Assembly (NCBI GenBank): GCA_041891055.1
Contig: CP169074.1
Location: 64,001 to 128,000, forward strand
DNA length: 64,000 nt
Source of the DNA: Halorutilales archaeon Cl-col2-1
Lineage (GTDB): Archaea; Halobacteriota; Halobacteria; Halobacteriales; Afararchaeaceae
Direction of reading: 5' to 3'
Below are positions 13,067 to 57,993 of this stretch, in pieces. How positions within the stretch are numbered: the stretch's first letter is position 1; each line of letters begins with the position of its first letter. The notes beneath the pieces are model-generated. The model saw only the letters and a program-made list of their open reading frames with translations, was not told where the DNA came from and searched no databases. The position numbers and the translations under genes were made by a program.

Positions 13067-14641
13067 TCAGAGAGAGACGTACTTCGCCGACTTGATTCCG
13101 TCCTCGGATGTGATCTCATCCCTGACCTCACGCGAGACTTCGGAGTCGACGTTTAGGACTATGATAGCCTCTCCGCCCGACGACTCACGCGCGTTGAACA
13201 TTCCGGCTATGTTGATGCCGTGTTCTCCGAGCATCGAGCCGACACGTCCTATCATTCCGGGTCTGTCCTCGTTGTGGATCACGAGCATATGTCCGTGGGG
13301 GAGAGCGTCGACACGGTAGTCGTCGATGTAGACGATCCTCGGCTCGTTCTTTCCGAAGAGTGTTCCCTCGACCTTCGTCTCGTCGCCGTCCTCCGTCCTT
13401 GCTGTGACTGAGACGAGTGAGACGAAGTCCTCCGTATGTCCCGTCTTCGACTCGGTGACCTTGACTCCTCTCTCCTCTGCTAAGACCGGAGCGTTTACGA
13501 AGTTGACGGGGTCGTCGAGTATGGGCTCGAGCATCCCCTTCTGTACCGAGACGGTGAGAGGCGATGTGTCCTCGTCGGCTATCTCTCCGCTGTACTCTAT
13601 CTCAAGCTCCTCGGTGCTCGTGTCGGTTATCTGTGCTGTGAGCTTTCCTAGAGTCTCAGCGAGGTTGGCGTATGCCCTCATCTTGGGGCTTCCCGTAGCT
13701 GCGGGGGCGTTGAGTGCGTTCTCGGCGACGCCTCCCTCTAAGACGTCTATGACCTGTTCGACTATCGAGGTCGCGACGTTTCTCTGTGCCTCCTCCGTCG
13801 ACGCACCGAGATGGGGAGTGACTATGATGTCCTCGACACCGAGTAGAGGCGAGTCCTTCGGGGGCTCCTCCTCGAAGACGTCGAAGGCGGCTCCCGCTAT
13901 CTCTCCTGACTCGACGCCGTCTGCTATCGCCTCCTCGTCGACGACTCCTCCGCGTGAAGCGTGTACGAGACGTGCGTGATCCTGCATGATCTCGACCTCG
14001 TCGTGGCTGATCATGTGGTGTGTCTCGTCTGTGAGAGGAGTGTGTACGGTGATGAAGTCACCACGTCTCAGAACCTCCTCCATCGACGCGAGTTCGGCTC
14101 CGAGCTCCTCTGCACGGCTCTCGCTCACATAGGGGTCGAAGGCGACGAGATCCATTCCGAGCTTCGAGGCTCTCTTGGCGACCTGACCGCCTATACGTCC
14201 GAGCCCGAGCACGCCGAGAGTCTTGTTGTTGACCTCGACTCCTATGAAGTCGCTCTTACGCCACTCTCCGTCCTTGAGAGAGTCGTGAGCCTGAGGTATG
14301 TTACGCGCCATCGAGAGCATCAGAGTCACTGCGTGTTCGGCGGCGGCGACAGTGTTGCCCTCGGGAGCGTTCGCGACGATTATACCTTTCTGTGTCGCGG
14401 CGTCGATGTCTATGTTGTCAACACCGACGCCCGCCCTGCCTATTATCTTGAGGCTGTCGGCGTTCTCGATGACCTTCGGCGTCATCTGTGTCCCACTCCG
14501 CACGATTATGGCATCGTACTCGCCGATCTGAGACGCGAGCTCTTCCTCGGTGAGCTCGGTCTTTATATCGACGGCATACGACTCTCTGAGACGCTCAACG
14601 CCCTCGTCTGAGATCGGGTCGCTGATTAGAACCTTCGGCAT
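13067..14641 (-). CDS. serA: D-3-phosphoglycerate dehydrogenase
   Basis: [28 protein letters not shown]-terminal ASB and ACT domains. Confidence 0.96.
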
Positions 14642-27262: not shown

Positions 27263-27517
27263 TTATCTGTTGTTGTCTATCCATCTGCAAAACTCGTCGA
27301 AGTCATCCGCGCCAGCTTGGTCAGCTATGTTACGTAATGTGCCGGTTCGTAGCGATTCGTGTCGAGGTACTGTAACAGTACGCGGATTAGTATCGTGGTT
27401 TTCGGGAGGCTCCCACTTCAGAATCATATGATCTCCTGTCGTCCGATCCCAGACGAAGTTGCCTTTGTTAACTAGAACTCGGGCGACATCATCCCCCGAG
27501 AAGTTACGTGTCACCAT
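27263..27517 (-). CDS. hicA: HicA family toxin (mRNA interferase)
   Basis: TTGDHMIL..VTVPRH..LRTGTLRNI..QAG. Confidence 0.88.
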   Translation of the reverse strand: MVTRNFSGDDVARVLVNKGNFVWDRTTGDHMILKWEPPENHDTNPRTVTVPRHESLRTGTLRNIADQAGADDFDEFCRWIDNNR

Positions 27518-27524
27518 CCTTCTA

Positions 27525-27785
27525 CTACTTCAGAAAGTCAGGGAGTTCGCCTCCGGCTTCGTTATCGTTGTCGTTGTCCTCGGGATCTATGCCGATCTCA
27601 CGGAGCTCTTCCTCGGTAGGCTCACGTCCTATCTCGCCCTTGTGTAAGGCGACCGCCTCCTCAAGGTTATCGAGGGCTTCTTCCTTCGTCGATCCCTGAG
27701 ACGCCACTCCCTCATCTTCATCCTTAGCCACCCAGACGCCGTCTTCTTGGGTCAGGGTTATCTTGCGTTTTATTTCGGTACTCAT
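27525..27785 (-). CDS. hicB: HicB family antitoxin (short form)
   Basis: EDGVWVA..GVASQGSTKEEALDNLEEAV. Confidence 0.88.
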   Translation of the reverse strand: MSTEIKRKITLTQEDGVWVAKDEDEGVASQGSTKEEALDNLEEAVALHKGEIGREPTEEELREIGIDPEDNDNDNEAGGELPDFLK

Positions 27786-31906: not shown

Positions 31907-34711
31907 TCACCGGAGTCGGCTTACTACGCCGACCAAGACGAGTATCAAGACTAAGGGAGCTCCGACGACCTTCAGACGTGTTATGTTGAGGGAGCTCCAG
32001 CCTCCGTCAGCCCCGGTCGTGTTCTTTACGTCCCTGACAGCCTGAGTCGCCACGGTCGAGTTAGACACACGTGACCCCGTCGAGTTGACGACTTCGAGAC
32101 GGTTTCCGAGCGGATTGGTGTTGTTGTACTCGAAGATGTAGTAAGACTCGCCGCCGAGGTCTGTCTTTCCGACATACCGGTTCCCTGAGTCGAAGAAGAC
32201 GACCGACTCCGGAGGCGTAGGCACGTCGACGCTCGAATTAGAAGACGACTCAGATCCGGGGTTGAAGCTCGTCGTCGAGAAGTTCTGTTCGAAGGGCTCG
32301 ACTTCGACTTCGAAGCTTCGGTTGGTCGAGCCGCTCGAATACTGTATAGTCTTCTCACCCGTCGTGAGAGCCGTCGCCTCCACTGAGAGCGTGTCGGTAC
32401 TGTTAGACTCCCAGTCACCCTCGGCTGTTACGACTATGCTACCGTAGGTGTAGCTCACGTCGAGCCCTGACGACGAGGACGACTCGGAGACAGCAAAGCT
32501 CGAAGGGAAGGTGAGCGAGTGGGAGCCGAATCCCGTGCCACCCGTGTTACGGCTCGTGAGATTGACTATGATCGAGTCAGCCGTGTTGACCTCAGAGGGG
32601 TGGTCTACGTCTACGAAGCTTATATTGGAGGGCGAAGACTCTACGACAGCTTGGGTGTCAGTCTCAGAGTACGAGTAGATTCCGATCCCACGTGGACGTA
32701 TCGTGGGGAGACCCTCCGACGTCCTTCCCGTATTTACGACACCTTTGACGAGTATGTCGTTCCCGGCTGCGAGGTCTATTGTCGACGGATACTCGATAAC
32801 GAGCTTAGTGCCGTCCTCGCCCCTCACCACGGCTCTGTCAGTCGACTCCTCCTCTTCTACCCCTCTTGTCTCACCGACCTTGACGACTGAGGCGTTGAAA
32901 GCGGTACGTCGCGAGTAGATACTCGTAGCCTCGGAGGCGTTCACCATCGTGTACCGGTCTAGAAGACCGAGGTTGCCGGGTATACTCAGACCTCCACGTG
33001 CACCCTCACGCAGGAAAGCAGCACCTCTGACAGAGACAGCGTAATGTGTTGCCGCGCCCTCGCCGACGGTGTACGGTGAAAACACCTCGAAGTCGTCGAC
33101 CTGTATCTCCTCGGTTGAGACGCGTCCCAAGACTGTGTAGTTCTCGGCGAGACGTAGCTGTCCCGCGTGGACGTCTCTCGCGAGTACCGTGTTGTCTCCT
33201 CCATCGAGGTAGACGTCGTCCTCGCCCGCGACAGACTCCTTTATGTACTTGACATACGAGTCGAAGACGACCCTCGCACCCACGAACTCCTCGACCTCGT
33301 CCCTGTCTACTCTTATGTAATGACTGTCGCCGACTGGAACGGCGTCAACTGCCTGGAAAGTACCGAAGGGGTCTGACTGGCGTATCTCCTCGGATCCAGG
33401 TATGGCGTCGTCGTCACCACCCGTGACTGTGTCTCCGTCTACCTCTTCGAGAAAACTGGATATACGGACTATATCGAGTATGTACCACTCACCCTCCTCG
33501 ACCGAGAGACCGAAGTCGGGACGGAGGACTCCGCGGAAGTACTGACGTCTGTTCTGTCTCGGTGGATAGCTCGGGTCTTGTCTCGTGCCGTCGGACGCCC
33601 AGAACTCGACGAGTGCCGCCCTCTCCGACGTGGACTCGACCTTTGCGACGACAGTAGTTCTCTCTCCTAGGTCTAACGAATCGAGTTCAGCGACGGGTGT
33701 GGCGTCGTAGGGCTCCGAAGTCGGGGGGCTCGCGTTCTGGCTGCCTTGGTTCCCGAACGTCTCGGGTGTGAAAATCGGCTCCTTCCTCATCTCTGCTTCT
33801 CCGACTTCGGTGTAGTTCTCGCTGACTATCTGGAACTCGTGGGTGTCGAATCCGACGTCTGCGTTACGTGAGAAAGCCTCGATCCTGTACCTCCCTAGAG
33901 TGTAGCCCTCGGTGTCGAAACCCGATCCGTCGAGGTCGTCTACGTCTGCGAGATCCCATCTTCCGTCGAAGTCTTCCTCGTCGTCGGGGTCTATAGGTAC
34001 CTTCCATCTCTCGACGGTTCTCATCGAGGTACTGTCAGTCGGTGTGTTGAGTTGGTTTATCTCGACGGTAATCTCGTCGACCGTCTTTTCGACGTTCTCT
34101 GAGAACCTGCCTTCGAGACGCCCCGTTATGCTGAGAGTATCGCCCACTACGACGTTACGGTCGAGGTCGTCTATGGTGACATCAGTTCGACGTTCGACGA
34201 CTTCGAAGCTCAGAACCGATATTACGTCGTCGGAGCCCGCCTCCCCCGCCGTCTCGGCTCTCAGGGTCTCCTCAAGCTGTGAGTAGGTCCACTGAGGGTT
34301 GTTCCTGACGAGGCTCTCAAGACTACTTGCTGTATTCGAGGTTCCGAATGTACCGTCACAGCCGCTACTCACCACAATAGCACGGTAGTCGCCCGGATGT
34401 GGTTCAGTAGGCAGGTCGAAGCTAAATCTCCCTGAGCCTCCGGAGTCGAACACAGCCGTGTCGGAGACGAAGCCAGCGTTTGTGTCGTCACGTGTCACGA
34501 CGGCGACGTACTCGGGTGTCTCGTTGGTGTCACGCACCTCACACCGTGAGTCGGATGCCTCGACAGCATATACGTTAGAGTCACCGTCTCCGAAGTATAC
34601 GGTGTTGGTACTCTGGGTCACACGGTAGTCAGACGAGTCCTGTGCGGCTCCGACGGGAAGTAAGAGAAGACACAGAGACGCAACGATAACCAGAGCGGCT
34701 GAGGAACGCAT
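31907..34711 (-). CDS. Large secreted, C-terminally anchored surface protein (S-layer-like N-terminal domains, putative OB folds, Ig/CARDB-like domain)
   Basis: Sec signal peptide; C-terminal TM plus SRLR; many N-x-S/T sites; VVSSGCDGTFG..AGSDDVI resembles S-layer glycoprotein domains. Confidence 0.65.
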   Translation of the reverse strand: MRSSAALVIVASLCLLLLPVGAAQDSSDYRVTQSTNTVYFGDGDSNVYAVEASDSRCEVRDTNETPEYVAVVTRDDTNAGFVSDTAVFDSGGSGRFSFDLPTEPHPGDYRAIVVSSGCDGTFGTSNTASSLESLVRNNPQWTYSQLEETLRAETAGEAGSDDVISVLSFEVVERRTDVTIDDLDRNVVVGDTLSITGRLEGRFSENVEKTVDEITVEINQLNTPTDSTSMRTVERWKVPIDPDDEEDFDGRWDLADVDDLDGSGFDTEGYTLGRYRIEAFSRNADVGFDTHEFQIVSENYTEVGEAEMRKEPIFTPETFGNQGSQNASPPTSEPYDATPVAELDSLDLGERTTVVAKVESTSERAALVEFWASDGTRQDPSYPPRQNRRQYFRGVLRPDFGLSVEEGEWYILDIVRISSFLEEVDGDTVTGGDDDAIPGSEEIRQSDPFGTFQAVDAVPVGDSHYIRVDRDEVEEFVGARVVFDSYVKYIKESVAGEDDVYLDGGDNTVLARDVHAGQLRLAENYTVLGRVSTEEIQVDDFEVFSPYTVGEGAATHYAVSVRGAAFLREGARGGLSIPGNLGLLDRYTMVNASEATSIYSRRTAFNASVVKVGETRGVEEEESTDRAVVRGEDGTKLVIEYPSTIDLAAGNDILVKGVVNTGRTSEGLPTIRPRGIGIYSYSETDTQAVVESSPSNISFVDVDHPSEVNTADSIIVNLTSRNTGGTGFGSHSLTFPSSFAVSESSSSSGLDVSYTYGSIVVTAEGDWESNSTDTLSVEATALTTGEKTIQYSSGSTNRSFEVEVEPFEQNFSTTSFNPGSESSSNSSVDVPTPPESVVFFDSGNRYVGKTDLGGESYYIFEYNNTNPLGNRLEVVNSTGSRVSNSTVATQAVRDVKNTTGADGGWSSLNITRLKVVGAPLVLILVLVGVVSRLR

Positions 34712-36864: not shown

Positions 36865-36968
36865 CAAATCCCTCCCTAATGGAGGGATTTGTGATCATCC
36901 CGAATCTGTGATTCGCGGGTACACGAGAATGAATTCTCGTGATCATCTCGAAAATTATATTATTTTCG
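36865..36968. repeat. REP-like hairpin array (four stem-loops; GTGATCATC repeated at 48-bp spacing)
   Basis: caaatccctcc/ggagggatttg, cgaatc-tgt-gattcg, cacgagaat-ga-attctcgtg, cgaaaat/attttcg. Confidence 0.7.
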
Positions 36969-37460
36969 CTCATCTCTCAACTCTTCTTCGGTGAAGTCAA
37001 AAAAGTCATCGTCTTCGTGTTCGTCGTCTAAATCGACGTCGAGGACGTCTATTTCCCTCTCTATGCCCCTGTCGTCGTAACACTCCCACGAGTTACGCGT
37101 GTAGGGATGTCCGACTATTATGTGGTAGTTGCCCTTCTTAGAGAATGTATCGAGATCCTGCTGACTCGGTATCGTGTTTCCCGAGGGATGTGAGTGGACG
37201 GTTCCAACTGTCGAGGCGTTCGTAGGTGTGGGTATCATCTCATCCCTCATCGTGGCTATCGCCTCACCCGACTCAGTACCCGGAACTACGACGACATCTG
37301 TTATCACGAGTCCGTCGCGGTCTATCCCGAGACGTCTCGCCTGAGTCGTACTCAGGAGACCCAGGAACTCGTTGGGATGGGTGTCACGGCACGTCGCTAG
37401 TATGAACTCAACCGTCTCGTCGGCGATTCCGAGGACGTTTCTGGATCTGAAGAGTCTCAT
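36960..37460 (-). CDS. JAMM/MPN+ metalloprotease (JAMM2-like)
   Basis: HPNEF catalytic Glu; HSHPSGNTIPSQQD. Confidence 0.88.
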   Translation of the reverse strand: MRLFRSRNVLGIADETVEFILATCRDTHPNEFLGLLSTTQARRLGIDRDGLVITDVVVVPGTESGEAIATMRDEMIPTPTNASTVGTVHSHPSGNTIPSQQDLDTFSKKGNYHIIVGHPYTRNSWECYDDRGIEREIDVLDVDLDDEHEDDDFFDFTEEELRDERK

Positions 37461-38140
37461 CTGAGTAGGATGTCTAAAGTCTGTCTGACCTCCGAGACCG
37501 TAAGCTGTCCGGGGGCTGTCGAGTCGTCACCGAGAGACGCATACGTCAGACGCGACCCGTAGAGGGGCGCGACGACGCGCGAGTGAGAGCCTTTCTCCCC
37601 CATCGCTATGGTACAGACATCGCCGTCGTATTCGAGTGTAGCCTCCAAGAGCCGGAGAACGTCGTCTCTCGACTCTGCTTGGACGGCGAGTTTGGGAACC
37701 CCAATACCGGAAGCTTCCGATAATATTTCGCGTATCTCGTCGTCGGAGGGAGTCGAGTCAAAGTCGTGGTACGAGGCGATTACAGTCGCCTCGGCGTCGT
37801 CGGCGGCATCGAGTACCTCGTCGTGAACCTCGTCGGAGGCGTTTAGCTCGACGTCGACTGCATCCGCGTACTCCGCAGCGCGTCTGAGGGTCTCGACACG
37901 TGCGTCCTCGTCGCCCTCGAAGTCCCCGCCCTCCCAACTCGGACGGTTGGTGGCTATAACCGGGAGGTCGACGTCGGAGTCGGTGAGACTCCGGAGACCG
38001 TCGAGTGGATCGCCGTCGGGATCGTATAGATCGAGACGTACCTCAACTGCGTCGGCTCCTCTCTCGTCGGCTTCACGTGCGTTTTCGACGAGGTCGGAAG
38101 TCAGACTTGCGACAACGAGGGGCTGTGAGAAATCTAGCAT
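37457..38140 (-). CDS. aroD: Type I 3-dehydroquinate dehydratase
   Basis: EVRLD, TNR..EGG, DVEL, SYHDF..TP, KLAV, AMG..G..SR, APGQ. Confidence 0.93.
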   Translation of the reverse strand: MLDFSQPLVVASLTSDLVENAREADERGADAVEVRLDLYDPDGDPLDGLRSLTDSDVDLPVIATNRPSWEGGDFEGDEDARVETLRRAAEYADAVDVELNASDEVHDEVLDAADDAEATVIASYHDFDSTPSDDEIREILSEASGIGVPKLAVQAESRDDVLRLLEATLEYDGDVCTIAMGEKGSHSRVVAPLYGSRLTYASLGDDSTAPGQLTVSEVRQTLDILLR

Positions 38141-38162
38141 CAGTTTCGATTGAGTTTGAGTT

Positions 38163-39311
38163 TTATTTTTCGAGAACGCTCTCCTCGACCTGTGTTCCGA
38201 AATGTCTCCCGCCTTCTTCTATGTATATCTTAATCTCGTCTCCCTCGTCTATCTCGGTCACCGACTTCGGACCGTCGGGTGTCACGAGCTTTATCGTCTC
38301 GGCGTTCTGGAGTAACGTCCTGTATCTCTCGCCGTCCTTCTCGACCTCGACGAGCATCATGGGGCGTTTCTCTATCTTCGACCTGCCGACTATCGACTGT
38401 CTCGTCTCGCCGTCCTCGTCGACTATGAGGACGTCGTCTCCGGCTTCGAGTTCGCTGAGGTACTTCGTCTCTCCGCCGGGGACACGTATGTAGGCGTGGA
38501 CGGCTCCAGCGTTGACTCGGAAGGGGCGTGACGCGACGTAGGGCGACTCGGCGGTCTCTGCGTGTACGAGGAAGAGACCGCTTGACATAGACCCGACGAG
38601 CATTCCCTCTCCTGGCTCCATGAGCGTCGCGGTGTCGACACAGACCCTGTCAGCCATCTCGGTGGGCTCGACAGTCGTGACCTCTGCGGTCGTGAGATCG
38701 ATCTCCTCCGATTCCGCCCTGTCCCTCGCCTCTACTGTGTCCTTTATGACTCCGGGATCGTCGGTGTCTAAGAGGACACCGTCGGAGCCTATTTCGAGTG
38801 TCTCGAATGCTGTCTCCGCCTCCTCCGCCGAGTCGACTCCTGCTATAAGCTGGGTCTCGTCTCCTACGTCGGCGATCAGGTTTTCGAGAGGGATTATCTT
38901 CCAGTCCTCTCCTATCGCGACGACGTAGTCGGCGTCCTTAGCCGCCTCCGCCGCGAACCTCTCGTACTCCTTGTTCTGTATCTCGACGTAGCTCGCGACA
39001 TTGCGGTCGTCGATCTGTCTTACTTTCGATAGGTCGCTTGATCCCCCTAAGTCAGGAGGGAACTCGGTCGTTCCGTCGCCCTCGGCGTCCTTTCCGACTA
39101 CGACGACGTCGGCGTCTGTCTCGACCTCCTTCGATGTGTTCGAGTCGACGAAAGCCGCTACCTTCGTCTCTCCGAGTTCGCGCACCTTCTCGACGTCTTC
39201 GTCGTCGACGAGTATGTAGTCGACGCCGCTCTCTATCGCTGCCGTAATCAGGGGAAGTCTGTCGTCCCAGTCGCCCTCGTCCGCCTTGTACCATACCTCT
39301 TTCTCTGTCAT
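38163..39311 (-). CDS. aroB': 3-dehydroquinate synthase II (archaeal AroB')
   Basis: WKIIPLENLIA, DRVCVDT, RPFRVNAGAVHAY, LQNAETI, GRHFG. Confidence 0.94.
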   Translation of the reverse strand: MTEKEVWYKADEGDWDDRLPLITAAIESGVDYILVDDEDVEKVRELGETKVAAFVDSNTSKEVETDADVVVVGKDAEGDGTTEFPPDLGGSSDLSKVRQIDDRNVASYVEIQNKEYERFAAEAAKDADYVVAIGEDWKIIPLENLIADVGDETQLIAGVDSAEEAETAFETLEIGSDGVLLDTDDPGVIKDTVEARDRAESEEIDLTTAEVTTVEPTEMADRVCVDTATLMEPGEGMLVGSMSSGLFLVHAETAESPYVASRPFRVNAGAVHAYIRVPGGETKYLSELEAGDDVLIVDEDGETRQSIVGRSKIEKRPMMLVEVEKDGERYRTLLQNAETIKLVTPDGPKSVTEIDEGDEIKIYIEEGGRHFGTQVEESVLEK

Positions 39312-40096
39312 AGTCCCGACTCCTCCATCGCCTCATCTACCGAGACGCCGCCGTGGACAATCGAGGAGATCGCATTTACCATAGACGGGACGTTGTCCCT
39401 CTGGAAGACGTTTCTTCCCATCGCGACACCTCTCGCTCCGACGTCCATCGCGTCACTTATGTCCTGGAGAACCTCCCTCTCTGTCTCAGCCTTGGGTCCG
39501 CCGGCTATAACGACGGGCGCGGGACAGCCCTCTATGACCTGTCTGTACTCGTCGGGGTCTCCGGTGTAGGCGGTCTTTACGACATCGGCTCCGAGTTCGG
39601 CTCCTATACGTGTCGCATGGGCTATGTTCTCGACGTCGGCGCTGTCGACGTCGTGTCCACGTACGTACATCATAGCTACGAGAGGCATACCGTACTTCTC
39701 ACACTCGTCGGCGACCTTACCGAGATCCTGAAGCTGCTGTGGCTCGGTTTCGCTTCCGACGTTGACCTGTACAGAGACGGCGTCGGCGCCGCGGCGCACA
39801 GCCTCCTCCACGGTTCCTACGAGAACCTTGTTGTTAGGCTCGCCGAGAGAAGTAGCCGCGTTTATGTGGACGATCAGACCCATGTCACGTCCCTTTCCTC
39901 TGTGTCCCTCACTCACTATACCTTTCTGCATCAGAACAGCGTCGCCGCCGCCCTCTGCTATGTCGTTTACCGTGGATTCGAGATCTCTTAGCCCCTCGAC
40001 GGGGCCAATAGAGACGCCGTGATCCATTGGGATAATTACGAAGTTCTTCGACTCCCTGTCACGTATCCTGTCGAGCCGTATCTCCTTACCAATCAT
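39308..40096 (-). CDS. aroA': 2-amino-3,7-dideoxy-D-threo-hept-6-ulosonate synthase (class I aldolase)
   Basis: PMDHGVS.GP, ELGADVVKT.Y, AGGPK, GRNVFQ; in an operon with aroB' and aroD. Confidence 0.92.
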   Translation of the reverse strand: MIGKEIRLDRIRDRESKNFVIIPMDHGVSIGPVEGLRDLESTVNDIAEGGGDAVLMQKGIVSEGHRGKGRDMGLIVHINAATSLGEPNNKVLVGTVEEAVRRGADAVSVQVNVGSETEPQQLQDLGKVADECEKYGMPLVAMMYVRGHDVDSADVENIAHATRIGAELGADVVKTAYTGDPDEYRQVIEGCPAPVVIAGGPKAETEREVLQDISDAMDVGARGVAMGRNVFQRDNVPSMVNAISSIVHGGVSVDEAMEESGL

Positions 40097-40446: not shown

Positions 40447-40492
40447 ATCCTGAGTAGAAAATATTATAACCGTGCATTACATCTCTGGCTGT

Positions 40493-41761
40493 ATGAGCCA
40501 TGTCAAGGGACTAAGATGCAGGGAGTGTGGGGAGGAGTATCCGGCGGTAATGAAGAATACGTGTGAGTCGTGTTTCGGACCTCTCGAAGTTGAGTACGAC
40601 TGGAGTGAGGTAGACGTATCGCGCGAGGAGATAGAGTCAGGTCCGAACTCGATCTGGAGGTACGCCGACCTTCTTCCGATAGACAACGAGGACTCGGTCG
40701 TCGACCTCGGGACAGGATTCAACCATCTCTACGAGGCGGACAACCTAGCCGACGAACTCGGAATAGGAGAGCTCTACATACTCAACGACTCGGTGAACCC
40801 GAGCTTCTCGTTCAAGGACCGTGTCACGGGGGTCGCGGTCGCAAAGGCGATAGAGTTCGGCGTAGACGCGATAGGCTGTGCGTCGACGGGTAACTTAGCT
40901 TCGAGTGTCGCTGCTCACGCCGCGAAGGCGGATCTTCCGGCTTACATCTTCATACCCGACACGATAGAGAAGGGCAAGATAACACAGACACTGACGTATG
41001 ACCCTGAGATAGTTCCTGTTGAGGGCAACTACGACGACGCCAACAGGCTCGCCACCGAGGTCGCCGATGAGAACGGCTGGGGATTCGTCAACATCAACCT
41101 GCGTCCCTACTACACAGAGGGTTCGAACACGATGGCTTACGAGGTCGCCGAACAGCTCGGCTGGGAGGCTCCCGACCACGTCGTCCATCCGATGGCGGCG
41201 GGTGCGTCTCTCCTGTCGGTTCAGAAGGGATACAAGCAGCTTGAGAAGCTCGGTCTGATAGAAGACGGCGATGTCAAGATGAGCGGATCACAGCCCGAGG
41301 GATTCCCGATAGCCGAGGCTGTGAGAAACGACGAGCCCGTGAAGCCGATACAGGAGTACGAGACACTCGCTCACTCTCTCGCGATAGGAAGTCCCGCCGA
41401 CGGATTCTACGCCAAGGACGCGATACTCGAGTCGGGAGGATACGCCGCAAACCCCGACGACGACGCCATCATCGAGGGTATCAAGCTCCTCGCACGCACC
41501 GAGGGAATATTCACAGAGCCCGCGGGAGGTACGACAGTCGCGGGTCTCAGACAGCTCGCCGAGGAGGGACGTATCGACGACGACGAGACCGTAGTCGTCA
41601 ACATAACCGGAAACGGTCTCAAGGCAGAGAGTACTCTCTCGGAGTTCGTGACTGTACCCGAGAGTATATCTCCGAGTATCGGTGAGTTCGAGGACAGGAA
41701 GCAGAGACAGAAGAGCAAGACCAAGAGCAAGAAAGAGGCAGTTCCTGGAGGTGATTACTAA
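40493..41761 (+). CDS. Threonine-synthase-like PLP enzyme, ThrC2/MetM-like clade
   Basis: CRECG..CESCFGPLEV, NPSFSFKDR (PLP Lys), ASTGN, FVNINLRPYY.EGS, SLAIGSPADG, LLARTEGIF. Confidence 0.88.
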   Translation: MSHVKGLRCRECGEEYPAVMKNTCESCFGPLEVEYDWSEVDVSREEIESGPNSIWRYADLLPIDNEDSVVDLGTGFNHLYEADNLADELGIGELYILNDSVNPSFSFKDRVTGVAVAKAIEFGVDAIGCASTGNLASSVAAHAAKADLPAYIFIPDTIEKGKITQTLTYDPEIVPVEGNYDDANRLATEVADENGWGFVNINLRPYYTEGSNTMAYEVAEQLGWEAPDHVVHPMAAGASLLSVQKGYKQLEKLGLIEDGDVKMSGSQPEGFPIAEAVRNDEPVKPIQEYETLAHSLAIGSPADGFYAKDAILESGGYAANPDDDAIIEGIKLLARTEGIFTEPAGGTTVAGLRQLAEEGRIDDDETVVVNITGNGLKAESTLSEFVTVPESISPSIGEFEDRKQRQKSKTKSKKEAVPGGDY

Positions 41762-42036
41762 TGGCAGACGTCAGATTTTCGAGCGCACTCAAGAAGGTGA
41801 CGGGAGAGACGACGACACAGGTCGAGGCAGAGACTGTCGAGGAAGCCATAGACAGACTCACGGAGAGATACGGTGACGACTTCGAGGATCGTCTGATGGA
41901 CGACGGCGAGATACAGAGGTTCGTCAACCTCTATGTCAACGGAGAGGACGTGAGACACGGCGAAGGTCTCGAAACGAGTATCGAGGACGACGACGAGATT
42001 TCGATTCTCCCCGCCGTGAGTGGAGGGTCAACTTAG
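41761..42036 (+). CDS. MoaD/CysO/SAMP-like ubiquitin-like sulfur carrier with masked C-terminus (GG-ST)
   Basis: FVNLYVNGEDVR..LET...DEISILPAVSGGST; TAATG overlap and GGAGGTGA SD at 41747-41754. Confidence 0.9.
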   Translation: MADVRFSSALKKVTGETTTQVEAETVEEAIDRLTERYGDDFEDRLMDDGEIQRFVNLYVNGEDVRHGEGLETSIEDDDEISILPAVSGGST

Positions 42037-42128: not shown

Positions 42129-42563
42129 ATGCCGAGTCTTCTAGACACACGCGTCGAAAACACCGAGATAGTACAGCCCAACGACACCAACATAGTCGAC
42201 ACCGCACACGGCGGTACCGTCGTGAAATGGATGGACGAGACGGGCGGAATATCGGCTATAAGATTCGCGGGGAACGTCTGTGTCACCGCGGGGATGGAGA
42301 GCGTCGACTTCCACCATCCGATACACAGAGGCGACGCCGCTGTCATACGTTCTTACGTCTACGACGTCGGGACTTCGAGCATAGACGTACGTATCTGTGT
42401 CTACTCGGAGAACCTCAAGACGGGAGAGAGACAGCTAACTACGGAGTCGTACTTCACCTACGTCGCAATAGACGACGACGGAAACCCCGTTGAGGTTCCC
42501 GAACTCGAAGTCGAGACCGAGAAAGAGAAGGAGTTACGTGACGAGGCTCTCGAAGGTGAGTAA
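42129..42563 (+). CDS. Acyl-CoA thioesterase (hotdog fold)
   Basis: QPNDTN..TAHGG.VVKWMDE, VDFHHPI..GD, FTYVAID. Confidence 0.88.
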   Translation: MPSLLDTRVENTEIVQPNDTNIVDTAHGGTVVKWMDETGGISAIRFAGNVCVTAGMESVDFHHPIHRGDAAVIRSYVYDVGTSSIDVRICVYSENLKTGERQLTTESYFTYVAIDDDGNPVEVPELEVETEKEKELRDEALEGE

Positions 42564-42564
42564 T

Positions 42565-43656
42565 ATGAGAACCTCAGAACGCACCGACGCGATAAGCATA
42601 AGCGGTATACGCCGTGTCTTCGAGGCGGCGGACGACGACGCCATAAACCTGGGTCTGGGACAGCCCGACTTCGACACTCCCGAGAACGTCAAGAAGGCGG
42701 CTGTCGAGGCTATCGAGACGGGGAAGGCTAGCTCGTACACCTCGAACAGAGGGATTCCGGAGCTAAGAGAGGCGGTCGCCGACAGCTTCAGCTTCGAGAC
42801 GTCTCCCGACGACGTCATAGTCACCTCGGGGGCGAGCGAGGCACTCCACATAGCCGTCGAGGCTCACGTCAACACAGGAGACGAGGTTCTAATTCCCGAC
42901 CCGGGATTCGTCTCTTACGAGGCTCTCTCGAAGGTCGCAGACGCGCGTCCGAAAGGTGTCGAACTCGCCGACGACCTGCGTCTCGAACCCGAGTCAGTAA
43001 AGGAGGCGATCACCGATGAGACTTCGGCGTTCGTGGTCAACTCCCCCGCGAACCCGACGGGTGCGGTACAGACACGTGACGACATGAGAGCCTTCGCCGA
43101 GATAGCCGACGACTACGGAGTGACACTCATAAGCGACGAGGTCTATGAGCCTTTCGTCTACGAGGGCGAGCACCACTCCCCCGCGGAGTTCGGTGAGAAC
43201 GTCGTCACAGTCAACGCAGCGTCGAAGGCTTACTCGATGACAGGATGGCGTCTCGGATACGTCACTGCGCCCGAGACCGAGAACATGTTACGTGTCCATC
43301 AGTACATACAGGCGTGTGCGAGTGCGCCGTCGCAGTACGCAGCCCTCGAGGCACTCGAAGGTCCTCAGTACGCTGTGAGCGAGATGAAGGACGAGTTCGA
43401 GGCGAGACGTGACCTGATACTCGACGCCTTCGAGGAGATGGGTCTCGACTGTCCGACGCCGAAGGGTGCATTCTACGCCTTCCCGGAGGTTCCCGACGGC
43501 TTCGTCGACGCGTGTATAGAAGAAGGAGTCGTTGTAGTTCCGGGAGATGCATTCGGAGAGGGCGGAGAGGGACACGCCCGCGTCTCTTACGCCAACTCAC
43601 GTGAGAACCTGCGTGAGGCTCTCGATGTGATGGAGTCGGTTCTCGAAGATCTCTGA
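42565..43656 (+). CDS. Class I/II PLP aminotransferase (aspartate aminotransferase-like)
   Basis: LGLGQPDF, NSPANPTG, SDEVY, SKAYSMTGWRLG. Confidence 0.92.
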   Translation: MRTSERTDAISISGIRRVFEAADDDAINLGLGQPDFDTPENVKKAAVEAIETGKASSYTSNRGIPELREAVADSFSFETSPDDVIVTSGASEALHIAVEAHVNTGDEVLIPDPGFVSYEALSKVADARPKGVELADDLRLEPESVKEAITDETSAFVVNSPANPTGAVQTRDDMRAFAEIADDYGVTLISDEVYEPFVYEGEHHSPAEFGENVVTVNAASKAYSMTGWRLGYVTAPETENMLRVHQYIQACASAPSQYAALEALEGPQYAVSEMKDEFEARRDLILDAFEEMGLDCPTPKGAFYAFPEVPDGFVDACIEEGVVVVPGDAFGEGGEGHARVSYANSRENLREALDVMESVLEDL

Positions 43657-54742: not shown

Positions 54743-55792
54743 TTAGCCGTCGGTGTATCTCTCGAAGACGTAGTCGTCGGGTTTTCCTCTTAGGACGTAT
54801 ACTCCGTACCCCGTGTCTTCGAGAACCTCGGCGACCTCCCTCTGGCGTTTCGACATACGGCTGTCGCCGTACTTGACCTCGACGAAACACGGCTCCTCGG
54901 GTCTCCAGTTCGACTCCTCGGTCTCGTCGTCCCAGTCGTCGATCCTTGACTGAGAACCCTCGACGTAAAAATCAGGGACGCCGCTCACGTCTCCGAAGAC
55001 GTGTTCGAGCCTGTGTCGCACGTCTCCGAGTCGCGCTTCTCTCAGAGCCTCACGTCCCCGGCGACAGTCGAATCCCCTCTCGGCGCACAGATTCGAGAAG
55101 AACTCCTCGAATCCGCGCCCCTTCCTCTGGTTTTCGACTGATAATCTTGTCCTATCGGCGAGTGAGTCGCGGTACTTCTCACGGACGTGTCTCCACACAT
55201 CGGCTTCGAGTCCGCGTGTTACTCGGTGTCGGTGTAGAATCGGATATCTCTCGCTGAGAAGAGCTTCGACGTCTTCCCGTCTCTCGATCTCTGTCAGATC
55301 CGAGTCCACGAAGATGTCTTCGAGTAGGTCATCTCTGATCCTCTCGCGAGTCTCCTCGGAGACGAATGAGCCGAAGTCGACGACTGACGACGGAGTGGCG
55401 AACCTACGTATCTCCCAGACCTCTGACCCCGACGCTCGTACGACTTCGCGGAGGTAGTAATCTGAGAGAACCTCGTCATCCTCGAATGCTTCGACGACGC
55501 CCCACTCGCTCGTCTCGGTGACATACTCATCCACTGCCGTCCTGAGTATCTCCGAGGTCATCGACTCGACATCCTCGGCTGTCGTGCCTCCCACGACTAT
55601 CCTCTCGTCGTCGAGGCTCAGACACGCGATATGACCCACTCTGCCGACCTCGTCTATATAACAGCCGAAGCAGTAGGTCTCGGCGTCGTCTCTCGAAGAC
55701 GTTAATCCGTTCTCGACGAAGAGGTCGGTCTCCAGAGAGCCCGTCTCGCCACAGACGCGGCACCGTGATCTCGACCAGCCGAAGTAAGCCAT
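54743..55792 (-). CDS. VRR-NUC/PD-(D/E)XK nuclease with N-terminal zinc-finger-like Cys pairs
   Basis: GRGFE..GVPDF..FVEVK..SRMSKRQ; CRVC and CFGC. Confidence 0.72.
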   Translation of the reverse strand: MAYFGWSRSRCRVCGETGSLETDLFVENGLTSSRDDAETYCFGCYIDEVGRVGHIACLSLDDERIVVGGTTAEDVESMTSEILRTAVDEYVTETSEWGVVEAFEDDEVLSDYYLREVVRASGSEVWEIRRFATPSSVVDFGSFVSEETRERIRDDLLEDIFVDSDLTEIERREDVEALLSERYPILHRHRVTRGLEADVWRHVREKYRDSLADRTRLSVENQRKGRGFEEFFSNLCAERGFDCRRGREALREARLGDVRHRLEHVFGDVSGVPDFYVEGSQSRIDDWDDETEESNWRPEEPCFVEVKYGDSRMSKRQREVAEVLEDTGYGVYVLRGKPDDYVFERYTDG

Positions 55793-55796
55793 TGTA

Positions 55797-56561
55797 TTAT
55801 GCTAGACCTCTCGTTACCATTCTCACTCCTATGAACAGTAGAAGGACTCCGAATCCCCTCTTCAGGCTCTCGTCTGGGACATACGCTGAGACGTGGGGTC
55901 CGACGCCCGCTCCCACGGTTATGCCGGCTATCAGGGGAAGCGCGAGTTCGGGTATGAGGTTGCCCTGACCGTACTGTTTGTACGACGCCACGACCGCACT
56001 CGGGAACATGGCGAATAGCGATGTCGCTACTGCGCGCGTGATTGTGAGTCCGAGAAGCATCGTGAGTACGGGAACCATGAGGGAGCCGCCGCCGATACCG
56101 AAGAGACCCGATGAGAAGCCGACGACTCCTCCGAGGACAAAGACAAGTATACTACCATACCGTCCCTCGACGTCGACGGTCGCTGAGACGTCAGAGTTGA
56201 GTGCCATCTTGATCCCGGGATAGAACATGAAGACGCCGAACGACGTCGCTAAGACTGACTCGGGGAGTACGTCGCTCGCAACTGCGCCCGCGTATCCCCC
56301 GACGACTGTCATCGGAGCGATCAGGAGACCCAGTCGGAGGTCGACCGCGCCGTTTCTGAGGTAGCCGACGCTCGAAGAAAGCGACGTGAAGGCGACCGCC
56401 GATATGCTCGTCCCGACCGCGAACTTCGTCTCCGAGACGAAGCCCCCGAGGACGAGAAGGGGCACCATCAGACCCCCTCCTCCTATTCCGAGTAGGCTCG
56501 AAAATACGCCTATGAAGAAAGCCGCGACGAAGAGCGAGACTGTTTCGGCGAAGACGACCAT
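55797..56561 (-). CDS. TauE/SafE (TSUP) sulfur-compound exporter
   Basis: Duplicated G(I)GGG..VP.L motifs, AVGTS/AVATS, about 8 TM helices. Confidence 0.9.
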   Translation of the reverse strand: MVVFAETVSLFVAAFFIGVFSSLLGIGGGGLMVPLLVLGGFVSETKFAVGTSISAVAFTSLSSSVGYLRNGAVDLRLGLLIAPMTVVGGYAGAVASDVLPESVLATSFGVFMFYPGIKMALNSDVSATVDVEGRYGSILVFVLGGVVGFSSGLFGIGGGSLMVPVLTMLLGLTITRAVATSLFAMFPSAVVASYKQYGQGNLIPELALPLIAGITVGAGVGPHVSAYVPDESLKRGFGVLLLFIGVRMVTRGLA

Positions 56562-56609: not shown

Positions 56610-57185
56610 ATGGAGATCACTAATCTCACACGAGACTCAGAAGCCTTCACCTCGAACGTCTTCTTAGTCGAGGGCGACACGAACGTCTTGGTCGATGTCG
56701 GTACCGTCCCCGGTATAATAGACGAAGTACGTGAAGCCGGGGGTATCGACGCAGTAGTTCTGACCCACTCACACCGCGACCACGTCGAACTCCTCCCGCG
56801 CGTCAAGCAAGAGTTCGACGTCGAGGTCTGGGGCTACGACGGTTCGTTCGAGGGAACTGACCACGAGATCGACGACGGCGACACCGTCGAGATAGGCGAC
56901 GAGACATTCGAGGTTCTCTTCACTCCGGGTCACAAGACCGACCACGTCTGTCTCGTAGGTGAGACTGTCGTCTTCGCGGGCGACCTGATCTTCGACGGCG
57001 GCGCGTTCGGCAGGACGGACTTAGAGGAGGGGAACCGTGAGTCACTCATCGAGAGCATACAGAGGCTTCTCGAAGAGGTAGAGGACAAAGATGTGGAAGT
57101 CATCTACACGGGGCACGGCTCGGCGATACGCGGCGACGTCGAGGGCGCGGTACGTAGGTCTCTCGAAAACGCGCGTCAGCTTTAG
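56610..57185 (+). CDS. MBL-fold metallo-hydrolase (glyoxalase II-like)
   Basis: LTHSHRDH, TPGH..DH, FAGD, GRTDL, YTGHG. Confidence 0.88.
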   Translation: MEITNLTRDSEAFTSNVFLVEGDTNVLVDVGTVPGIIDEVREAGGIDAVVLTHSHRDHVELLPRVKQEFDVEVWGYDGSFEGTDHEIDDGDTVEIGDETFEVLFTPGHKTDHVCLVGETVVFAGDLIFDGGAFGRTDLEEGNRESLIESIQRLLEEVEDKDVEVIYTGHGSAIRGDVEGAVRRSLENARQL

Positions 57186-57448
57186 CCGCCGCTCGCTGCG
57201 GGAATTATACGTATCTCGTCGTCTTCTTCTAGGCTGGTTTCGACGCCAGCGAGGTTCCTTATGTCCTCACCGTTGACGTAGACGTTTATGTACTCCTTGA
57301 CCTCGCCGTCGTCCATGACCTGGTCTTGTATCTCGGAACCGTGCTCTTCGGTGTAGGCGTCTATCGCCTCCTTTACTGTCGTCGCGTTTACCTCGACCTT
57401 CTTCGATCCCTCGTTCGTGAGAACCGCTGGCACGTTTATTACTGGCAT
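57182..57448 (-). CDS. SAMP/CysO-like ubiquitin-like protein with free C-terminal GG
   Basis: YINVYVNGEDIR..VETSL...DEIRIIPAASGG-stop. Confidence 0.9.
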   Translation of the reverse strand: MPVINVPAVLTNEGSKKVEVNATTVKEAIDAYTEEHGSEIQDQVMDDGEVKEYINVYVNGEDIRNLAGVETSLEEDDEIRIIPAASGG

Positions 57449-57479
57449 TGTGTTAATTAGGGTAGTTTTGTGTCAAAAG

Positions 57480-57917
57480 CTAATCGGTACTACTCTCCCT
57501 AACCTCACTGTCGACCTCTATCTCCTCCCTCTCGAACTCGTCTCCCGTCCAGATCCAAGAGCCTACCTTGGGTTCGTCGTCACCGAGTGAGACTATGACA
57601 TACGAGTGCCCCGTCCACGTTGCCCTCTCGGCGTCAGTCTCACTCGTCCTGAATGGACCCTCGGGATGTGAGTGGTAGAATCCGACTACGTCGAGACCCT
57701 CGTCCTCTATAGCCTCGACTATCTCGAACTGTTCCTGAGGATCTATGAGGTAGTTCGTCTCGGGGGTCTCGCTGACGTTCTCGCAGTCGTAGATCTTCTC
57801 GACTGTCGCCTCTTTTTCACCCCTCTCACCCGCGAGCACGCCACAGATCTCGTAGGGCTTGCCATCCTTCGCGTGGTCTATTATCTCGTCATAGTCGTCG
57901 ACGTCGAACTCTATCAT
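57480..57917 (-). CDS. JAMM1/Mec-like desampylase (M67 metalloprotease)
   Basis: PYEICGVLAG, YLIDPQEQ, GFYHSHP....SETD. Confidence 0.9.
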   Translation of the reverse strand: MIEFDVDDYDEIIDHAKDGKPYEICGVLAGERGEKEATVEKIYDCENVSETPETNYLIDPQEQFEIVEAIEDEGLDVVGFYHSHPEGPFRTSETDAERATWTGHSYVIVSLGDDEPKVGSWIWTGDEFEREEIEVDSEVRESSTD

Positions 57918-57993
57918 CACTCCGTGGTACGCCGCCTCGCGCCTAATATATTCCGGCACGTCTCCCGGCGTCCCATCAGTTTTAAGTCTACGA

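Follow-up and report, generated by a model that had tools for sequence, protein, structure and literature searches.

The Gene Pair at the Locus

The window, that is, the whole 64,000-nucleotide stretch of DNA analysed here, carries two overlapping forward-strand genes. The upstream gene (40493..41761, +) encodes ThrC2, a 422-residue PLP enzyme of the PALP fold with a zinc ribbon, which its ORF, its PALP and thrC model matches, trees and HMM scores mark as a MetM-like candidate. The downstream gene (41761..42036, +) encodes Ubl-A, a 91-residue MetO-like sulfur-carrier candidate of the MoaD/SAMP1 family ending in ILPAVSGG-ST, as judged from its ORF, its ThiS and SAMP1 matches and the C-termini of its orthologues. 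In the ORF list the ThrC2 frame runs from 40472 to 41761 (+) and opens with GTG; an in-frame ATG at 40493 gives a protein beginning MSHVKGLRCRECG. Since this N-terminus matches those of the orthologues (MSHVIGLKCRECG...), 40493 is the likely start. An AT-rich box, AAAATATTATAA, at 40458..40469 (+), lies 24–35 nt upstream of this ATG. It may be an archaeal TATA box serving a transcript with a short leader or none, and its position agrees with the usual haloarchaeal TATA-to-start distance.

The two genes share a single nucleotide, the TAA stop of ThrC2 (41759–41761) and the ATG of Ubl-A (41761–41763) forming TAATG. A putative Shine–Dalgarno-like sequence, GGAGGTGA (41747..41754, +), lies within the 3′ end of the ThrC2 gene, 6 nt before the Ubl-A ATG. 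An earlier reading, made from this DNA alone and called here the sequence-only reading, had proposed on these two features that the enzyme gene is coupled to a MoaD-like gene, and both are indeed present. So are the protein motifs it listed: the N-terminal CxxC..CxxC (C9, C12, C24 and C27 of the translation), FVNINLRPYYTEGS, SLAIGSPADG and LLARTEGIF.

ThrC2 scores 215.6 bits against Pfam PALP and 284.6–285.4 bits against the NCBIfam thrC model TIGR00260 (cut-off 167.1). Its PLP lysine, K108 in SFKDR, is invariant in all 57 aligned sequences. Ubl-A scores 57.7 bits against Pfam ThiS and 73.5 bits against the NCBIfam SAMP1 model NF041918 (cut-off 60), and its C-terminus is GG-ST, not a bare GG. 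The GC contents of the ThrC2 and Ubl-A genes are 0.571 and 0.554, versus 0.568 for the window, and both proteins are acidic; the composition of the pair gives no sign of recent arrival by horizontal transfer. A complex prediction for ThrC2 (residues 1–400) with Ubl-A (residues 1–89), from 44-row alignments, gave a score of 0.12 (mark 0.32), which speaks neither for nor against an association.

Distribution of the Pair in Archaea

In all 39 archaeal loci examined, the ThrC2 orthologue is immediately followed by a homologous Ubl gene. The other haloarchaeal ThrC paralogue, about 40% identical, has a homologous small gene beside it in none of eight loci, so the ThrC2/Ubl adjacency is not due to chance. 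The pairing is conserved in no fewer than nine archaeal families and also in the Actinomycetota. In 20 of 30 archaeal loci other than the present one, the pair is flanked by an E1 (ThiF) gene, and in one archaeal group the gene order is ATP-sulfurylase, DsrE-like, ThrC2, Ubl, ThiF. No E1 or JAMM gene adjoins the pair in the haloarchaeal loci. The residues that follow GG in the archaeal Ubl orthologues vary, as follows: ST, S, R, C, V, SL, SR and SWELE.

Among the 401 sampled genomes of the phylum, 34 have a ThrC2-type gene named "threonine synthase". These carriers include, with names as the sources give them, halophilic Methanosarcinaceae and Geoglobus, besides members of two haloarchaeal families. 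Among the haloarchaea sampled, the pair is limited to two small-genome families (11 of the 401 genomes), and just 2 of the 18 haloarchaeal families in the sample have Ubl-A as an extra ThrC2-linked paralogue.

ThrC2 and Canonical Threonine Synthase

In a quick tree of 100 rows, ThrC2 falls with actinobacterial ThrC-like genes in a clade with a support value of 99*. In a careful tree of 41 rows the same group has support of 100/99 on a branch of length 0.32 and excludes canonical ThrC1 (100/100). Thus the phylogeny places ThrC2 with the actinobacterial genes and not with canonical ThrC. In an AU test of this group, which was named only after the tree had been seen, a topology that unites archaeal ThrC2 and archaeal ThrC1 was not rejected (lnL 61 lower, p = 0.070). 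With an HMM made solely from 14 actinobacterial sequences, ThrC2 scores 484.9 bits, versus 324.8 bits with the archaeal ThrC1 HMM.

The two clades are fixed for different residues at 29 positions, including several within conserved ThrC motifs, and at most of these positions the ThrC2-clade residue is found in 31 of 31 sequences. ThrC2 and all 31 clade members have STGNLA and NxNLRPYYxEGS, versus STGNTS and NSxNPxRxEGQ in ThrC1, with the arginine of NxNLRPYYxEGS three positions earlier than in the ThrC1 motif. In ThrC structures the STGNTS and NSxNPxRxEGQ motifs bind the phosphate. The motifs that the sequence-only reading named as marks of a ThrC2 clade are thus clade signatures unlike canonical ThrC. 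The N-terminal zinc ribbon does not set ThrC2 apart, since ThrC1-type proteins also have three of the four cysteines as invariant residues. Assignment as a cysteate synthase was likewise rejected, the TIGR03844 score being 85.2 bits versus a cut-off of 324.9.

The same genome has a canonical thrC, ThrC1, at C1:359210-360178, so that ThrC2 is not its sole thrC. ThrC1 is the better match to TIGR00260, with 334.7 bits, and to the solved threonine synthases (6cgq, 2d1f, 2zsj and 1uim), with 285–327 bits versus 172–197 bits for ThrC2. A ThrC1-type gene is also found in 34 of 36 carrier genomes, and 35 of the 36 have some other gene above the thrC cut-off. The carrier genome with no other thrC is G027 (91% complete); no ThrC1-type gene is present in G397 (99% complete). 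Judged by its sequence, ThrC2 is not the threonine synthase that the cell ordinarily uses. TIGR00260 evidently fails to separate MetM-like proteins, and an excerpt of GapMind 2026 describes MetM as frequently misannotated as threonine synthase.

Actinobacterial Relatives and the MetM/MetO System

SAM riboswitches are not known from archaea. A SAM-I riboswitch (RF00162) lies just upstream in 16 of 16 actinobacterial loci tested. An Rfam scan of the present window gave one tRNA and no other family, hence no SAM riboswitch; as none is known from archaea, this absence is read as a host difference and not as counter-evidence. All 80 bacterial loci found for ThrC2 relatives are from Actinomycetota. 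In 45 of them a small downstream gene matches the archaeal-Ubl HMM and ends in PAVAGG or PAVAGGC, in keeping with the earlier claim that kin of this clade adjoin moaD-like genes; the other 35 have no adjacent carrier. ThrC2 is 45–52% identical to the actinobacterial enzymes, including those of Streptomyces-type loci, which were recognised by architecture (riboswitch plus carrier) and not by characterised MetM itself. Ubl-A is 37–45% identical to the actinobacterial MetO-like proteins, with G88, G89, P84 and A85 invariant.

In Streptomyces albulus, MetM and MetO, with Mec and MoeZ, are reported to form homocysteine, the substrates being O-phospho-L-homoserine and the thiocarboxylate of MetO (Hasebe et al. 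2024, AEM; as related in excerpts of PMC13759103, its bioRxiv version and PMC12172450). The riboswitch and carrier arrangement of the actinobacterial loci is that told of metM/metO in the same excerpts. The archaeal pair resembles this system in having a ThrC-homologous PLP enzyme followed by a MoaD-like carrier of about 91 residues ending in ...PAV(A/S)GG. Both partners are homologous, the clade and its signature residues are common to the two, and in each there is a separate canonical thrC. The carrier has one or more extra C-terminal residues, whose removal would call for a JAMM protease; it ends in GGC in several Streptomyces loci and in GGST here. The differences are the archaeal host, an acidic, salt-adapted protein (pI 4.35), the presence of MetX-MetY alongside, and an E1 that is a stand-alone UbaA with no rhodanese domain, encoded elsewhere.

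Candidate Supporting Genes and Known Homocysteine Routes

Of the genes that the sequence-only reading named for checking, thrB and a UbaA-type E1 are found in the genome, as are JAMM proteases. The homoserine kinase gene, thrB, is at C1:1861704-1862576 (TIGR00191, 183 bits, cut-off 168; NF002288, 311.8 bits). The single ThiF-family (E1) gene is a UbaA equivalog (453.2 bits) that falls below the cut-off of the MoeZ model with 344 bits. At 276 residues it has no fused rhodanese domain, in contrast to MoeZ as its NCBIfam model is named. A desampylase, that is, an HvJAMM1-type JAMM/MPN+ protease, is encoded at 57480..57959 (−) (Prok-JAB, 76 bits; NF041370, 161.5 bits, cut-off 130). Though it has no synteny link to the pair, it may be the enzyme that removes the two residues after the Ubl-A GG. 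Another JAMM-domain protein, encoded at 36960..37460 (−) at the end of an aro operon 3 kb upstream of the pair (Prok-JAB, 47 bits; no NCBIfam match), is a weak alternative candidate for the maturation protease. No JAMM homologue is present in the flanks examined, ±4 kb for the actinobacterial loci and ±1.5 kb for the archaeal ones.

Besides Ubl-A, the genome encodes two SAMP1-family proteins and one SAMP2-like protein. One of the former outscores Ubl-A on the SAMP1 model (91.7 bits) and on the bacterial moaD model (45.8 versus 18.8 bits). Since this protein and MoaE, encoded 1.3 Mb from Ubl-A, are both present, Ubl-A would not be needed as MoaD.

The sequence-only reading held that the carrier route operates instead of direct sulfhydrylation. 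That part fails, since the genome has an intact metX-metY operon, and a ThrC2 route would be additional and parallel to MetX-MetY. More widely, MetY, the HcyBio (DUF39) route or both are present in 31 of 36 carrier genomes, so most phyletic patterns lend no gap-filling support, and phyletic complementarity was set aside as a general argument. Three genomes of one family (f39) have MetE and lack MetY-type and HcyBio genes. Two genes put forward earlier as precursor suppliers, asd (5161-6198, −) and serA (13067-14641, −), do lie in the window; at 26–35 kb from the pair, they are not linked to it.

Proposed Pathway

We propose that ThrC2 and Ubl-A are probably an archaeal member of the MetM/MetO system that is now misannotated as threonine synthase. 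We infer every chemical step, substrate and product of the route, including that the product is homocysteine rather than cysteine, as follows. ThrB would provide O-phospho-L-homoserine. A JAMM protease, probably the desampylase, would trim Ubl-A to its GG end, and the single UbaA-type E1 would adenylate the trimmed carrier and turn its C-terminus into a thiocarboxylate. ThrC2, as a PLP enzyme of threonine-synthase descent, would eliminate phosphate from O-phosphohomoserine, and the Ubl-A thiocarboxylate, instead of water, would attack the γ carbon. An acyl shift and hydrolysis would then give homocysteine, released for MetE. In the literature searched, no published description of the archaeal pair was found, and homologues are mentioned there only in cyanobacteria.

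Alternative Explanations

The same architecture could serve a different product. The carrier thiocarboxylate might act on O-phosphoserine to give cysteine, in the manner of CysM/CysO, or sulfur might be delivered to the β carbon, yielding a thiol amino acid of another kind. ThrC-fold enzymes can accept O-phosphoserine, cysteate synthase being among the ThrC paralogues; the weak match of ThrC2 to TIGR03844 fits such a reading. So do the score of the genome's only CysK/M-like gene, below its family cut-off (254 bits versus 344), and the general sulfur-assimilation context given by the ATP-sulfurylase and DsrE-like genes beside the pair in one archaeal group. However, the SAM riboswitches of the bacterial clade loci are a methionine/SAM signal and not a cysteine signal, ThrC2 has the residues of that clade at the signature positions, and homocysteine is the reported product of the characterised relative. 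We consider a cysteine or other thiol product unlikely.

Alternatively, ThrC2 might be a second threonine synthase, or synthase/deaminase, with the neighbouring Ubl a SAMP for conjugation or regulation and not a substrate. The better-scoring canonical thrC of this genome and the ThrC1-type genes of most carriers argue against this, as does the alteration of STGNTS and NSxNPxRxEGQ throughout the ThrC2 clade. The invariable adjacency, the 1-nt overlap and the frequent E1 neighbour point instead to a sulfur-transfer unit, and the two other SAMP1-family proteins and the SAMP2-like protein would be available for conjugation and Moco. On the other side, ThrC2 clears the cut-off of the curated thrC model and retains the PLP lysine along with many of the residues invariant in ThrC, and the AU test leaves room for a nearer relationship with archaeal ThrC1. 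Proteins of the SAMP1 type are known to modify other proteins (PMC4443979), and a cyanobacterial homologue 51.6% identical to MetM is reported to act as a threonine synthase and deaminase in vitro, and not to raise methionine (excerpt of PMC12172450). We judge this explanation to be quite improbable. That Ubl-A is a mere MoaD subunit of molybdopterin synthase, placed after ThrC2 by historical accident, is very improbable. It does match moaD_arch (TIGR01687, 66.1 bits) as well as SAMP1, and the genome has MoaE; the other SAMP1-like protein is nonetheless the better match to both SAMP1 and bacterial moaD, MoaE is distant, and the association with ThrC2 persists from one archaeal family to another and also in Actinomycetota.

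Comparison with Other Systems

In Mycobacterium tuberculosis, CysM, CysO and Mec+ make cysteine from O-phosphoserine and CysO-thiocarboxylate. This operon type is listed in PMC1779556. The proposed MetM/MetO-like system of ThrC2 and Ubl-A would share with it a PLP β-family enzyme, a MoaD-like thiocarboxylate nucleophile and a JAMM protease acting on the carrier. In contrast, CysM belongs to the CysK/CysM family and not to ThrC, and its substrate is one carbon shorter; cysM models match ThrC2 weakly and are not among its top matches.

The carrier of Wolinella succinogenes is reportedly made with an extra C-terminal residue that is cut off by a JAMM protease. Its HcyS/HcyF/HcyD/MetY system is described as a protein-thiocarboxylate methionine pathway (Krishnamoorthy and Begley 2011, via an excerpt of PMC5764234). 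Its homocysteine sulfur comes from a thiocarboxylate of the ThiS/MoaD type, as is proposed for ThrC2. The Wolinella PLP enzyme is MetY, of the Cys_Met_Meta_PP fold, acting on O-acetylhomoserine, whereas ThrC2 has the ThrC fold and presumably acts on O-phosphohomoserine.

With canonical ThrC, ThrC2 has in common the fold, the SFKDR motif of the PLP lysine, the N-terminal zinc ribbon (as in archaeal ThrC1) and probably the O-phosphohomoserine substrate. Unlike canonical ThrC, it has the 29 clade-fixed substitutions and is always paired with a carrier gene in the archaeal loci (39/39). In Haloferax volcanii, SAMP1 is associated with Moco synthesis and with conjugation to proteins, not with a ThrC-like enzyme. 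The likeness to its SAMP1/UbaA/HvJAMM1 system (PMC4443979) lies in Ubl-A passing the SAMP1 model and in the presence of UbaA and desampylase equivalogs.

Implications

It is tempting to go further, as follows. The ThrC2–Ubl(–E1) unit might be an old archaeal homocysteine route, the sole one in some lineages (f39) and run by the SAMP machinery in haloarchaea. A SAMP-family protein, controlled by JAMM removal of the variable residues after GG, would then link methionine supply to Ubl conjugation, with Ubl-A itself perhaps also attached to proteins. We offer this wider picture as speculation that is considerably more likely wrong than right.

Publication of the MetM/MetO route, for Streptomyces, dates from 2024. 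Should the archaeal pairs act in the same way, a block of archaeal "threonine synthase" genes is misannotated, and the ThrC2 signature together with a downstream GG carrier would give metabolic-reconstruction tools a rule for recognising them. If true, the proposal would also provide a testable candidate for homocysteine synthesis in lineages without any known route, and the SAMP/UbaA/JAMM machinery would gain a role in amino-acid biosynthesis beside those in Moco synthesis, tRNA thiolation and protein conjugation.

The ThrC2–Ubl-A Pair in the Window

ThrC2, the MetM-like candidate enzyme (422 aa), is encoded at 40493–41761 (+), and Ubl-A (91 aa, ending ...ILPAVSGG-ST), the candidate sulfur carrier encoded directly 3′, at 41761–42036 (+). 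The mechanical ThrC2 ORF begins at a GTG, position 40472; the start was taken as the ATG at 40493, since the resulting N-terminus, MSHVKGLRCRECG, agrees with those of the orthologues. ThrC2 has four N-terminal cysteines (C9, C12, C24, and C27) and a full-length PALP domain (215.6 bits), and it passes the NCBI thrC equivalog model TIGR00260 with 284.6–285.4 bits (cut-off 167.1). Ubl-A matches the ThiS/MoaD fold (57.7 bits); on the SAMP1 model it reaches 73.5 bits, exceeding the cut-off of 60. An SD-like GGAGGTGA lies at 41747–41754 (+), and the last A of the ThrC2 TAA stop is the first base of the Ubl-A ATG. Every detail reported by the sequence-only reading, i.e., the cysteines, the PLP enzyme, the SD-like element, the TAA/ATG overlap, and the MoaD-like Ubl, is confirmed. 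Both proteins are acidic (pI 4.35 for ThrC2 and 4.05 for Ubl-A), and the GC content of the pair agrees with that of its surroundings. An AT-rich box at 40458–40469 (+), 24–35 nt before the ThrC2 ATG, is possibly a TATA box.

Upstream of the pair lie an MTH865-like gene and an archaeal aro operon (aroD, DHQ synthase II, ADH synthase; 37457–40096, −). The operon consumes aspartate semialdehyde, a branch-point shared with homoserine. Directly 3′ of Ubl-A, the genes at 42129–43656 (+) encode a hotdog acyl-CoA thioesterase resembling YciA (4HBT) and an aminotransferase of class I; these are not kept beside the pair in other genomes and are therefore probably unrelated to it. Elsewhere in the window, a HicA-toxin-family gene adjoining a DUF7387 gene (27263–27785, −) likely forms a toxin-antitoxin pair, and a 934-aa ORF (31907–34711, −) has no Pfam match at 1e-8.

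ThrC2 and the Housekeeping Threonine Synthase

ThrC2 does not represent the housekeeping threonine synthase but a paralogue of it. In this genome (2.06 Mb, 4 contigs, 99.5% complete), a separate canonical enzyme, ThrC1, is encoded at C1:359210–360178, and it scores 334.7 bits on TIGR00260, above the 285.4 bits of ThrC2. With the solved threonine synthases 6cgq, 2d1f, 2zsj, and 1uim as reference, ThrC1 scores 285–327 bits and ThrC2 172–197. Among the 36 genomes bearing the pair (carrier genomes), a ThrC1-type gene is present in 34 (in G395 as contig-edge fragments only), and some other gene exceeds the thrC cut-off in 35. The exceptions are G027 (91% complete), without another thrC, and G397, without the ThrC1 type. 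The latter, a Methanosarcinaceae-like genome (99% complete, one contig; loci L151/L152), encodes ThrC2 together with a 450-aa ThrC-family protein of a third, long-branched kind, which scores above the cut-off on the thrC model alone (258 bits). IlvA is encoded in the Halorutilales genome as well, as is a third, distant ThrC/CysK-like PALP protein (356 aa; C1:1439473–1440306, L003:1408–2478, −), which scores 186 bits on PRK08197, below the cut-off, and adjoins a HAD hydrolase.

Relationship to Actinobacterial MetM/MetO-like Loci

A profile search found an actinobacterial representative 45% identical to ThrC2, and a species-genome scan with an 11-sequence alignment as the query gave 80 loci, all in Actinomycetota, 14 of them in Streptomyces. 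A carrier HMM made solely from archaeal carriers matches an ORF of about 91 aa just 3′ in 45 of the 80, all 14 Streptomyces loci included, with C-termini ...IIPAVAGG or ...AVAGGC. In the remaining 35, which belong mostly to Micromonosporaceae and relatives (L060–L088 and others), no carrier ORF lies within 4 kb; these may have the carrier gene at another site, or their enzyme may draw on a different sulfur donor. All 16 loci tested with Rfam have a SAM-I riboswitch (RF00162, 62.8–83.8 bits) located 13–102 nt ahead of the match to the ThrC-like gene; L060 was the sole carrier-less locus among them.

In Streptomyces albulus, MetM is reported to be a MetO-thiocarboxylate-dependent homocysteine synthase, and MetO maturation to need Mec, with MoeZ as the ligase (PMC13759103, its bioRxiv version, and PMC12172450). 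PMC12172450 places a SAM riboswitch upstream of metM-metO and describes a cyanobacterial MetM homologue with an adjoining metO-like gene. The order riboswitch, ThrC-like gene, carrier agrees with what has been published for S. albulus metM-metO. The MetO-like carriers of seven Streptomyces loci (L117, L118, L121, L123, L125, L127, and L134) end in GGC rather than GG, which fits the step "[MetO]-L-cysteine hydrolase Mec" in GapMind 2026; at other Streptomyces loci the C-terminus is plain GG or GGAGA.

A quick ML analysis of 100 sequences of the ThrC family unites archaeal ThrC2 (support 98) and the actinobacterial genes in one clade (99). Outside it fall the ThrC1 clade (100), the other paralogue of haloarchaea, and a third type. 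In a careful tree with 41 rows, the joint clade has 100/99 support (branch 0.32) and ThrC1 100/100. On an HMM from 14 actinobacterial sequences, ThrC2 reaches 484.9 bits and the genome's own ThrC1 264.9; on one from 12 sequences of archaeal ThrC1, ThrC2 reaches 324.8. ThrC2 groups with the Streptomyces-type loci, apart from ThrC1. Against this grouping, an AU test does not reject a topology in which archaeal ThrC2 and ThrC1 are constrained to form one group (delta lnL 61, p = 0.070).

Comparison of 31 ThrC2/MetM-like with 12 ThrC1 sequences revealed 29 alignment positions fixed differently (at least 90% per group). ThrC2/MetM-like proteins have STGNLA, NxNLRPYYxEGS, and SLAIGxPADG, whereas ThrC1 proteins have STGNTS, NSxNPxRxEGQ (the Arg being shifted three positions), and AIRIGxPVNA; the PLP lysine, K108, is invariant. 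The three motifs singled out earlier are genuine clade signatures, since they are fixed differently in the two groups, and the N-terminal zinc ribbon is not, being common to ThrC1 too. The altered motifs presumably correspond to substrate-phosphate contacts in ThrC structures.

Distribution and Neighbours in Archaea

Of 40 relatives in the order, only G001, G011, and G027 have ThrC2 orthologues (at least 79% identity). In a wider sample of the order, the gene is present in 11 of 401 genomes, namely 2/2 of family f1 (own genome included) and 9/9 of f11, and in none of the 390 genomes of 16 other families. Sampling at the phylum level shows orthologues (E <= 1e-110) in 34 of 401 genomes, with seven further families represented and 53–67% identity outside the own genus. 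The closest database proteins, bearing the names Methanoperedens, Methanohalophilus mahii, Methanosarcinaceae, and Geoglobus, are all labelled "threonine synthase". A Ubl-A homologue lies directly 3′ of ThrC2 in 39/39 archaeal loci (4/4, 28/28, and 7/7) and beside none of eight loci where other haloarchaea have a distinct ThrC paralogue (~40% identical). The enzyme and its carrier are a conserved unit. An exact GG C-terminus is found in 27 of the first 32 carrier proteins; the haloarchaeal carriers, and that of L046, have variable residues past GG (ST, S, R, SL, C, V, SR, SWELE), with one lacking any extra residue.

The archaeal neighbours, surveyed in flanks of ~1.5 kb, point to sulfur activation. 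A ThiF/E1 gene adjoins the pair in 20 of 30 archaeal loci outside the own genome. In f19, the E1 gene is divergent upstream, and an NMT1-like binding protein is encoded downstream. In f21/f43 (L047–L057), a five-gene cluster is conserved in the order ATP-sulfurylase, DsrE-like, ThrC2, Ubl, ThiF. This cluster could constitute a complete sulfate-to-thiocarboxylate-to-amino-acid module, or it may merely adjoin a dissimilatory sat locus. The haloarchaeal loci examined lack ThiF/E1, ATP-sulfurylase, DsrE-like, and NMT1-like neighbours.

Supporting Genes

The Halorutilales genome encodes ThrB. Its sole ThiF-family gene is a UbaA equivalog, without a rhodanese domain given its length of 276 aa. Four ThiS-family proteins are encoded: Ubl-A, Ubl-B, a SAMP1-like protein, and a SAMP2-like protein ending in GGV. 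Ubl-B (88 aa, GG end; 57182–57448, −) belongs to the SAMP1 family and, with 96 bits on the HMM of ThrC2-linked carriers, is a close paralogue of Ubl-A. The window contains both of the genome's JAMM genes. A desampylase equivalog (161.5 bits; within 57182–57959, −) is directly upstream of Ubl-B, and a second JAMM-domain protein (36960–37460, −; Prok-JAB 47 bits, no NCBIfam match) follows aroD at the end of the aro operon. On the 3′ side of desampylase/Ubl-B are a TauE/SafE sulfite-exporter-family gene (55797–56561, −) and then an unannotated 349-aa ORF (54743–55792, −) with no Pfam match at 1e-8 and no NCBIfam match.

Discussion

The pair is most economically read as an archaeal MetM/MetO system. 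What is observed is its gene content, coupling, homology, and synteny; we infer the substrate, product, and chemistry. ThrB would supply O-phosphohomoserine, a JAMM protease would expose the GG end of Ubl-A, and UbaA would then make the Ubl-A thiocarboxylate, with which ThrC2 would convert O-phosphohomoserine to homocysteine. The sequence-only reading had this route operate instead of direct sulfhydrylation, a claim that fails because the metX-metY operon is intact; the route would rather run parallel to MetX-MetY.

The phyletic pattern mostly gives no further support. No HcyBio (DUF39) gene was found in the own genome, MetY is over the cut-off in 13 of the 36 carrier genomes and HcyBio is found in 25, and f19 has both. 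Only in family f39 would the pair close a gap. Its genomes G165, G367, and G401 (90, 73, and 86% complete) have MetE, no Cys_Met_Meta_PP match above 31 bits, and no HcyBio, and no homocysteine-synthase candidate other than the pair was seen in them; the three count as one observation because they are kin. A rival proposal is that the mechanism is shared with MetM/MetO and the product differs, being cysteine or a β-thiol. ThrC2 could also be a second threonine synthase/deaminase and Ubl-A an unrelated SAMP; the cyanobacterial homologue is reported to have had such activities in vitro (PMC12172450). Finally, Ubl-A could be a plain MoaD; MoaE is encoded, but the top scorer on the SAMP1/moaD models is the SAMP1-like protein, not Ubl-A.

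No archaeal description of the pair or the route was found in full-text searches on MetM/MetO, threonine synthase-MoaD, homocysteine-thiocarboxylate, or SAMP1-homocysteine, in agreement with the earlier statement that no haloarchaeal report was known. Two comparative-genomics studies of prokaryotic Ubls have cysteine synthase contexts, and no ThrC, in the main text. An archaeal MetM/MetO system would be coherent and testable, extending the 2024 discovery without introducing a new principle.
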